This document shows positions 24,924-25,059 of a DNA stretch of 64,000 nucleotides, piece after piece (within the stretch, counting starts at the first letter, position 1; each line of letters opens with the position of its first letter). This DNA comes from Escherichia coli. GTDB taxonomy: Bacteria > Pseudomonadota > Gammaproteobacteria > Enterobacterales > Enterobacteriaceae. The stretch lies in NCBI RefSeq assembly GCF_003334385.1, contig NZ_QOWN01000003.1. One strand, written 5' to 3'. Under the pieces are notes generated by a model. It saw only the letters and a list, made by a program, of their open reading frames with translations, did not search any database and was not told where the DNA came from. The translations under genes were made by a program, and so were the position numbers.

Positions 24924-25059
24924 ATACTCAACACGATTCACCTCTGTTTCTGTGAAAACTGTGATGAAAATCTGTGATTCAAACAGGTTGTTTTGAAAGT
25001 AAACATCGGTTATGCGATAATCGCGCTAATGTGATGTAAAAAGATACAGGGGTGTAATC

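Follow-up and report, generated by a model that had tools for sequence, protein, structure and literature searches.

The ydjLKJIHG–ydjF–ydjE region of Escherichia coli lies on the + strand of the stretch of DNA analysed here, 64,000 nt of contig NZ_QOWN01000003.1 (hereafter the window). Between ydjG (23943–24923 in the RefSeq E. coli annotation) and ydjF (25060–25818, + strand, GTG start) is a spacer in which the hexamer CTGTGA occurs three times in direct orientation, at 24950–24955 (copy 1), 24959–24964 (copy 2) and 24972–24977 (copy 3), all on the + strand and with start-to-start spacings of 9 and 13 nt. The original prediction, made from the sequence alone, had given the array at exactly these positions and spacings, ahead of a gene for a DeoR-type regulator. 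The RefSeq assignment of ydjF to the DeoR/GlpR family agrees with it, and YdjF orthologues carry the Pfam domains PF08220 (HTH_DeoR) and PF00455 (DeoRC). YdjF is presumed to be the protein that binds the boxes described below. On balance, comparison of the spacer with its relatives suggests that the array is probably composite, copies 1 and 3 belonging to operator boxes for YdjF and copy 2 completing a weak site for the cAMP receptor protein (CRP).

Downstream of the array is a promoter for ydjF at 24993–25021 (+ strand), with the −35 hexamer TTGAAA starting at 24993, a 17-nt spacer and a TG-extended −10 hexamer GATAAT that ends at 25021. In a consensus scan 10 of the 12 positions match and TG stands ahead of the −10, so that the promoter is near-consensus for sigma-70. 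The same hexamers have been reported as a constitutive RpoD promoter of ydjF in genomic systematic evolution of ligands by exponential enrichment (SELEX) with the holoenzyme alone (Shimada et al. 2014, PMC3946193). Transcription is predicted to start at A25028 or A25029, 7–8 nt after the −10, with the three hexamers at about −78 to −51 relative to this predicted start. No mapped start site for ydjF was found in the literature searched.

The count of the hexamer is in itself only mildly unusual. The whole window contains 17 copies of CTGTGA against 25 expected; the hexamer is thus not over-represented, and 3 of the 17 fall within 28 bp. Three clusters in which any non-trivial hexamer occurs three times within 30 bp are present in the window, while 100 dinucleotide-preserving shuffles gave a mean of 0.6 triple clusters (standard deviation 0.75), 1 % of them reaching three. 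Chance alone would be expected to supply about half a triple cluster per 64 kb, and the earlier statement that the array is unlikely by chance is only moderately true of the count. The two other triple clusters are formed by CGAGGC at 5, 21 and 29 and by TGATAT at 29054, 29060 and 29069. The case against chance is made by conservation, not by count. Copies 1 and 3 share an exact extension to the 7-mer TCTGTGA, at a repeat distance of 22 bp.

The spacer was compared across 22 orthologous ydjI-H-G-F-E loci from Escherichia, Citrobacter, Klebsiella, Raoultella, Yokenella, Intestinirhabdus, Budvicia, Symbiopectobacterium and Serratia. In order, the alignment consists of block A (ACCTCTGTTTCTGTGTAA), a variable segment of approximately 12 nt, block B (AAATCTGTGATTCAGACATGTTnTTTTGAAAATAAACAT), the extended −10, a variable stretch and GGAAACAGAGGTG at the ribosome-binding site; both the −35 and the extended −10 of ydjF are kept in the orthologues. 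Copies 1 and 3 are the cores of boxes with a consensus of about WWWTCTGTGWWW that are kept in about 21 Enterobacterales. Box 1, GTTTCTGTGAAAA (24946–24958, + strand; about −82 to −70), holds copy 1; its TTCTGTGTAA is kept in about 21 of 23 Enterobacterales, copy 1 appearing there as TCTGTGT. Box 3, AAATCTGTGATTC (24968–24980, + strand; about −60 to −48), holds copy 3 and is nearly invariant in 22 of 23. It opens conserved block B (24968–25006, + strand; alignment columns 79–117), which runs unbroken from box 3 through the −35 to AAACAT. A box matrix was built from the other genera (non-E. coli enterics only). Against this matrix box 3 scores 14.3 bits, the second-best match in the whole window, and box 1 scores 9.8 bits, rank 34 of 127,976 window positions; both are candidate YdjF half-sites, box 3 being the best.

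The spacing between boxes 1 and 3 (21–22 bp) and the distance from box 3 to the −35 are constant in about 21 species. A phased array with spacings of 9 and 13 nt, as first proposed, is not what has been conserved: copies 1 and 3 are kept 21–22 bp apart, and copy 3 stands 21 bp ahead of the −35. Among the loci compared, the ydj operon of Serratia sp. H1w is interrupted by phage tail genes, and what is left is a remnant of ydjH together with ydjG, ydjF and ydjE. Its ydjF spacer keeps box 3 and the anti-Shine–Dalgarno arm that is described below, with a 10-bp deletion between them.

A box of the same kind, TTATCTGTGCTTT (18488–18500, + strand), lies at the ydjL promoter within a conserved region upstream of ydjL (TTTGTGATCTnAGTTGTGAAATGCAGATCAnnATCTGTGTTTTAAAGATTTnnTGTTGACC; ATG at 18582), and takes rank 9 in the window with the box matrix. 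At both promoters ATCTGTG stands 23 nt before the −35, at 18490 ahead of TTGACC (18513–18518) for ydjL and at 24970 ahead of TTGAAA (24993) for ydjF. Aligned on their −35 hexamers, the two promoters agree at 18 of the 30 nt upstream (composition-preserving shuffle p about 2e-4), a degree of identity that, out of 127,942 30-mers in the window, only 8 others reach. Of the four occurrences of the longer motif TCTGTGWWW in 64 kb, both strands counted, three are in the ydjL and ydjF promoter regions. An inverted box, TCCTCTGTGTTTA (18562–18574, − strand), overlaps the ribosome-binding region of ydjL downstream of its promoter. At 14.4 bits it is the top box-matrix position in the window, and it is weaker in other genera (ACACAAAGG). 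Ranks 1, 2, 9 and 11 of the 127,976 positions all fall within the ydjL and ydjF promoters.

A second conserved element of the ydjL promoter, TTTGTGATCTnAGTTGTGAAATGCAGATCA (18461–18485), lies upstream of the ydjL box. TGTGA is directly repeated within it at a distance of 12 bp in other genera; the element also has an inverted repeat GATCTG…CAGATC and, at 5 bits or less, makes a poor CRP site. A CRP site at the ydjL promoter was considered and rejected, the best score being 6.9 bits for a position that lies downstream of the −10 and is absent from the published table of CRP boxes used below.

YdjF homologues in other phyla are 56–71 % identical. Three distant clusters were analysed, from Agarivorans (YdjF 70 % identical), Caproiciproducens (63 %) and Anaerostipes (59 %), and all three retain the full ydjL-K-J-I-H-G-F synteny. 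Because synteny is kept with YdjF 59–70 % identical, the comparison points to transfer of the ydj cluster across phyla. The helix-turn-helix segment TEETIRRDLEKLE of YdjF is invariant from E. coli to Anaerostipes. As a further feature, both Firmicute clusters have an extra ribulose-phosphate 3-epimerase gene after ydjL.

The boxes upstream of ydjL and ydjF in these distant clusters are of the AAATCTGTG type. In Agarivorans AAATCTGTGTTTT and AAATCTTTGTTTC precede ydjL and TTTTCTGTGATTC precedes ydjF, and in Caproiciproducens AAATCTGTGTTTA is located between the −35 and a TGnTATAAT −10 of ydjF. Upstream of ydjL in Anaerostipes are AAATCTGTGAAAA, 21 nt, ATATCTGTAAAAC, 24 nt and TTGACT, with an inverted copy in the promoter spacer. 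An unbiased count of 7-mers in eight promoters from four lineages returned AAATCTG (6 of 8), followed by ATCTGTG and AATCTGT (5 of 8 each), as the most frequent (shuffle p about 0.002). At two of the three loci the best box-matrix match among about 41,500 positions falls on a cluster promoter, that of ydjL in Agarivorans and that of ydjF in Caproiciproducens. No CRP-like box was found in the distant promoters, where the maximum score is 4.9 bits.

Because the boxes travel with the cluster across phyla, are present at both promoters and are not CRP sites, they most likely serve as operator for YdjF, the DeoR-family regulator that the cluster itself encodes. The DeoR-type operator that had been proposed for the whole array appears to hold for copies 1 and 3, with their cross-phylum conservation and the further box at the ydjL promoter, but not for the array as a unit. 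Boxes 1 and 3 lie two helical turns apart, with copy 3 two turns upstream of the −35. Since the box is placed identically at the ydjL promoter, YdjF would act on its own gene as well as on the ydjLKJIHG catabolic operon, probably as a multimeric repressor that is freed by a phosphorylated intermediate of the pathway. Multimeric repression released by an intermediate is usual for the DeoR family. E. coli DeoR, GlpR and AgaR are multimeric repressors with several operators at catabolic promoters, often with cAMP-CRP co-regulation, cooperativity or looping. The ydjL promoter is silent in culture and reliably on in the mouse gut (PMC6561318), which fits the repression by YdjF that we infer.

A related case is FruR, a DeoR-family regulator of Bacillota that recognizes TGAWWGWTTT in 10-bp direct repeats, four to eight copies of which are located upstream of, across and downstream of the fru promoter, and whose effector is a sugar phosphate (PMC11906611). 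FruR belongs to the same family as YdjF, is likewise encoded with its sugar cluster and has several short repeats as its operator. The two differ in that the ydj box is WWWTCTGTGWWW, with copies 21–22 bp apart and, in E. coli, upstream of the −35, whereas the FruR repeats are in tandem every 10 bp; binding by YdjF is, moreover, a prediction. The DeoR and GlpR operators are palindromes of 16–20 bp. In this respect the ydj boxes differ, being mainly direct copies for which no consistent palindrome could be defined.

Several other operator designs were considered and rejected. For a single palindromic operator serving both promoters the arm spacing is inconsistent (N5 at ydjL, N7 at ydjF in E. 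coli), and other genera do not keep the right arm. Around the −35 there is a GlpR-like palindrome (ATGTTCTTTT/AAAATAAACAT) at the ydjF promoter only; ydjL lacks it. PhoB recognizes CTGTCAT repeats every 11 bp and ArcA recognizes TGTTA every 11 bp. Neither type of direct repeat fits the half-site sequence or the spacings of 9, 13 and 22 bp, on a comparison of motif descriptions in which no scan was made.

The spacer was found in 4330 of 5426 complete E. coli genomes. It is missing from the other 1096, which places the ydj cluster outside the species core; one spacer copy in this collection is plasmid-borne. Six of the E. coli spacer variants sampled, among them that of K-12, have all three CTGTGA copies intact; the K-12 spacer differs from the window solely at 24990. 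In the seventh sampled record copies 1 and 2 are altered, and its ydjG is frameshifted. Elsewhere in the cluster, E. coli NCCP12480 carries an IS1 between ydjJ and ydjI (6803–7500 of its locus) that is absent from the window.

Copy 2 (24959–24964, + strand) has a different history. It falls within the sole variable segment between boxes 1 and 3 and is specific to E. coli, being absent in E. whittamii, in Escherichia sp. E1V33 and in all other genera examined; TATGAT or GATGAT stands at its position in the two sister Escherichia. Against the box matrix it scores 7.0 bits (rank 125), with A replacing the conserved T before CTGTG. Its TGTGA provides the good half of a CRP-like box, TGTGATGAAAATCTGT (24960–24975, no strand assigned), in which six bases separate it from the TCTGT of box 3. 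For the ydjF< <ydjG spacer a SELEX-chip peak of CRP that depends on cAMP has been reported, with the box ACAGATTTTCATCACA (Shimada et al. 2011, PMC3105977, Table S3), and the reverse complement of ACAGATTTTCATCACA is TGTGATGAAAATCTGT at 24960–24975. Boxes were located in that study by searching 500 bp around each peak for the motif. In vitro binding of both cAMP-CRP and the RNA polymerase holoenzyme to this spacer is taken from the literature.

A CRP matrix was made from the 149 boxes in Table S3 of PMC3105977. It recovered control sites in the window at msrB/gapA (17351–17366, 17.2 bits), yeaQ (564–579, 15.3 bits) and mipA/yeaG (13441–13456, 13.7 bits), all of which are in the same table. The centre of TGTGATGAAAATCTGT, 24967.5, is −60.5 or −61.5 from the predicted start, so that the box is predicted to occupy a class I position. 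Aligned sequence in the relatives scores 5.0 bits (E. whittamii) and 2.4 bits (Escherichia sp. E1V33), and no CRP-like box was found at the equivalent place in other genera. Copy 2 would be read as an addition confined to E. coli, made in unconstrained sequence between the older boxes and giving a weak CRP site near −61, an activating class I position. As this site overlaps box 3, CRP and YdjF may compete for overlapping DNA.

The arrangement resembles class I CRP sites of the lac P1 type (−61.5) in that TGTGA is followed, after a gap of six bases, by a poor second half, with the centre some 61 bp ahead of the predicted start. It also resembles the manX CRP site ACGGATCTTCATCACA listed in the table of PMC3105977, one half of which matches 2 of 5 bases. 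It differs from class I sites in that the ydjF site is weak (8.2 bits), is confined to one species, has one in vitro SELEX-chip peak as its support and is placed from a predicted start. A further Escherichia-only repeat, TGTGATGTAAA (25030–25040, + strand), is a 10-of-11 copy of copy 2 plus flank, TGTGATGAAAA (24960–24970). It is located at the predicted ydjF start, 70 bp downstream of TGTGATGAAAA, and has a CRP score of 2.0 bits.

CRP half-sites had been offered as the other reading of the hexamers, and this part of the original prediction appears to hold for copy 2 together with the start of copy 3, which form the published CRP box, but not for the whole array. That all three hexamers are only CRP half-sites, tandem or overlapping, with YdjF playing no part, is very improbable. 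TGTGA is indeed a CRP half-site, and the cAMP-dependent peak maps to the spacer; however, a single 16-mer in the spacer scores above 2.5 bits. Copies 1 and 3 were rejected as separate CRP sites, with 2.4 bits for the TGTGA frame of copy 1 and less than 2 bits for that of copy 3. In addition, boxes 1 and 3 are kept in spacers that lack a CRP-like box, and clostridial promoters in which CRP scores do not exceed 4.9 bits carry them as well. Clostridia are not known to rely on cAMP-CRP catabolite control.

The three hexamers might instead be equivalent half-sites of one YdjF direct-repeat operator that has three units in E. coli and two elsewhere. Copy 2 with its flank, AAAACTGTGATGA, does resemble box 3 and reaches 7.0 bits with the box matrix, it is intact in 6 of the 7 sampled E. 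coli spacer variants, and the operator of FruR, from the same family as YdjF, has four to eight repeats (PMC11906611). Yet copy 2 is lacking in every other species examined, sister Escherichia included, has A instead of T before CTGTG unlike all conserved boxes, is spaced at 9 and 13 bp, off the 21–22-bp phasing of the boxes, and coincides exactly with the published CRP box. Taken together, an operator of three equal units appears unlikely.

Even less likely is that the triple repeat as such is functionless, with two functional boxes and a third copy arisen by chance in a drifting spacer. Chance would supply about 0.6 triple clusters in 64 kb, and the window has two more besides this one; copy 2 lies in the least constrained segment, and its CRP score is marginal. 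Against a chance copy, it has stayed intact in 6 of the 7 sampled variants, the sole CRP-like 16-mer of the spacer is its creation, with six bases, the correct gap, between its TGTGA and the fixed TCTGT, and a cAMP-CRP peak is reported at this spacer.

A number of observations weigh against a composite of YdjF operator and CRP site. No characterization of YdjF, and no binding sites or expression data for it, were found in the literature searched. The enteric sequences are closely related, so that their conservation amounts to few independent observations, and box 1 is absent in Symbiopectobacterium, Serratia and Agarivorans. In Anaerostipes the best box-matrix matches in the intergenic region upstream of ydjL rank only 4th and 12th. 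The E. coli boxes (about −82 to −48) are both upstream of the −35, which is not the classic position of an occluding repressor. Elsewhere the box lies in the −35/−10 gap (Caproiciproducens) or as an inverted copy in the ydjL promoter spacer (Anaerostipes), and enteric conservation extends through the −35. A full operator could not be defined; the palindrome-like partners differ in spacing, being ATCTGT-N5-ACAGAT at ydjL and CTGT-N7-ACAG at ydjF. With respect to CRP, the published box was picked by motif search inside a low-resolution peak, and its 8.2 bits fall at the 23rd percentile of the 149 SELEX boxes. As many as 32 window positions (about 1 in 2,000) score at least as high as TGTGATGAAAATCTGT. 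Measured against TGTGA-N6-TCACA, the box has one perfect half and one with 2 of 5 bases matching, and the placement at −61 depends on the predicted start.

Conservation at the 5′ edge of the spacer may have a separate cause at the RNA level. The sequence ACCTCTGTTTCT (24940–24951, + strand), at the start of block A and overlapping the first two bases of copy 1, is the 12-bp reverse complement of AGATACAGGGGT (25042–25053, + strand), the Shine–Dalgarno region of ydjF, which reads GGAAACAGAGGT in other genera. In Escherichia only, the 5′ arm is extended by CACGATT (24932–24938, + strand), the exact complement of AATCGTG (25056–25062, + strand), which includes the GTG start codon. The ydjF promoter (24993–25021) lies inside the loop between the arms. 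RNAalifold pairs alignment columns 50–61 with 156–167, with pairing in 97.8 % of cells across 23 species. The E. coli sequence folds at −45.3 kcal/mol (z = −4.5) with 19 pairs, the start codon included; z-scores are −5.4 in Symbiopectobacterium, −3.5 in Agarivorans and −2.7 in Serratia, and in six further species, Agarivorans included, the minimum-energy fold is likewise closed by this helix. In a model of read-through RNA the Shine–Dalgarno sequence pairs with the upstream arm with a probability of 0.80–1.00 in 23 of 23 species, against 0.33–0.58 in a short transcript.

These features raise the possibility that ACCTCTGTTTCT acts as an anti-Shine–Dalgarno arm that blocks translation of YdjF from ydjLKJIHG read-through mRNA, while transcripts from the promoter of ydjF itself start in the loop and escape. 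The hexamers would then lie in the loop without being a functional unit themselves. Such a fold-back is compatible with, not exclusive of, an operator and CRP site in the same DNA; it is a tentative proposal that is doubtful on present evidence. In addition to the pairing, the arm is kept where box 1 is lost and is present in Agarivorans too, and the scan found no terminator-like site after ydjG, the sole hint of read-through. On the other side, covariation is near absent, 20 of 500 shuffles reaching the observed score with both arms conserved in sequence, and a test of cognate against non-cognate pairing of the variable flanks was negative (p = 0.22–0.28). The folds of C. youngae, Budvicia and K. 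oxytoca do not stand out (z = −1.3 to −1.7), neither Firmicute cluster has the arm, and the loop is about 90 nt long. A known RNA family was looked for as well and rejected, since a permissive Rfam scan of 24700–25300 returned a chance snoRNA match only (E = 0.76). The arm also resembles the box variant CCTCTGTTT, and the pair could be two inverted operator sites about 104 bp apart.

In the mRNA of the IS10 transposase a comparable fold-back operates: read-in transcripts sequester the ribosome-binding site, and those from the element's own promoter start downstream and are translated. The ydjF leader is similar in having an upstream complement of the ribosome-binding site and a promoter of its own downstream of that arm. 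It differs in that ydjF is a chromosomal gene for a repressor and closes the operon presumed to be under that repressor's control, in that the loop of approximately 90 nt contains a promoter and control sites, and in that covariation was not seen. It is conceivable, although the odds are against it, that the spacer is a two-layer insulator in which the modelled helix 24932–24951/25042–25062 hides the ribosome-binding site and start codon of ydjF in read-through mRNA. If so, induction of the pathway would not raise synthesis of its repressor, and the only source of YdjF would be the gene's own promoter, set by the YdjF boxes and, in E. coli, by CRP. An IS10-style fold-back would then uncouple a chromosomal repressor from the operon under its control.

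Downstream of ydjF no ydj box was seen in the ydjF–ydjE spacer. This spacer contains a hairpin at 25881–25900 (GCGGCAA-gtgaat-TTGCCGC, then a T-rich run), and a similar GCGCGG…CCGCG is conserved in other enterics; the hairpin may be a terminator or attenuator ahead of ydjE. In the window ydjE (25935–27293) has an in-frame stop at 26613–26615 (…QQIER*KSIR…), which splits the major facilitator superfamily transporter into open reading frames at 25935–26615 and 26709–27293. In a Citrobacter youngae genome ydjE is likewise called as two pieces.

YdjF is counted among the E. coli transcription factors that are still uncharacterized (PMC4797297), and no prior description of a YdjF operator was found in the literature searched. 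The control proposed here is in kind an ordinary local DeoR-type operator with an overlapping CRP site. The ydjLKJIHG genes encode an orphan sugar pathway, and a candidate box, WWWTCTGTGWWW, at both of the cluster's promoters may offer a route to the regulon, to the inducer and to engineering of a gut-responsive promoter. The box is common to syntenic clusters of gut Clostridia. In E. coli the spacer would also provide an example of a CRP site arising within one species, filling an unconstrained gap between older repressor boxes.

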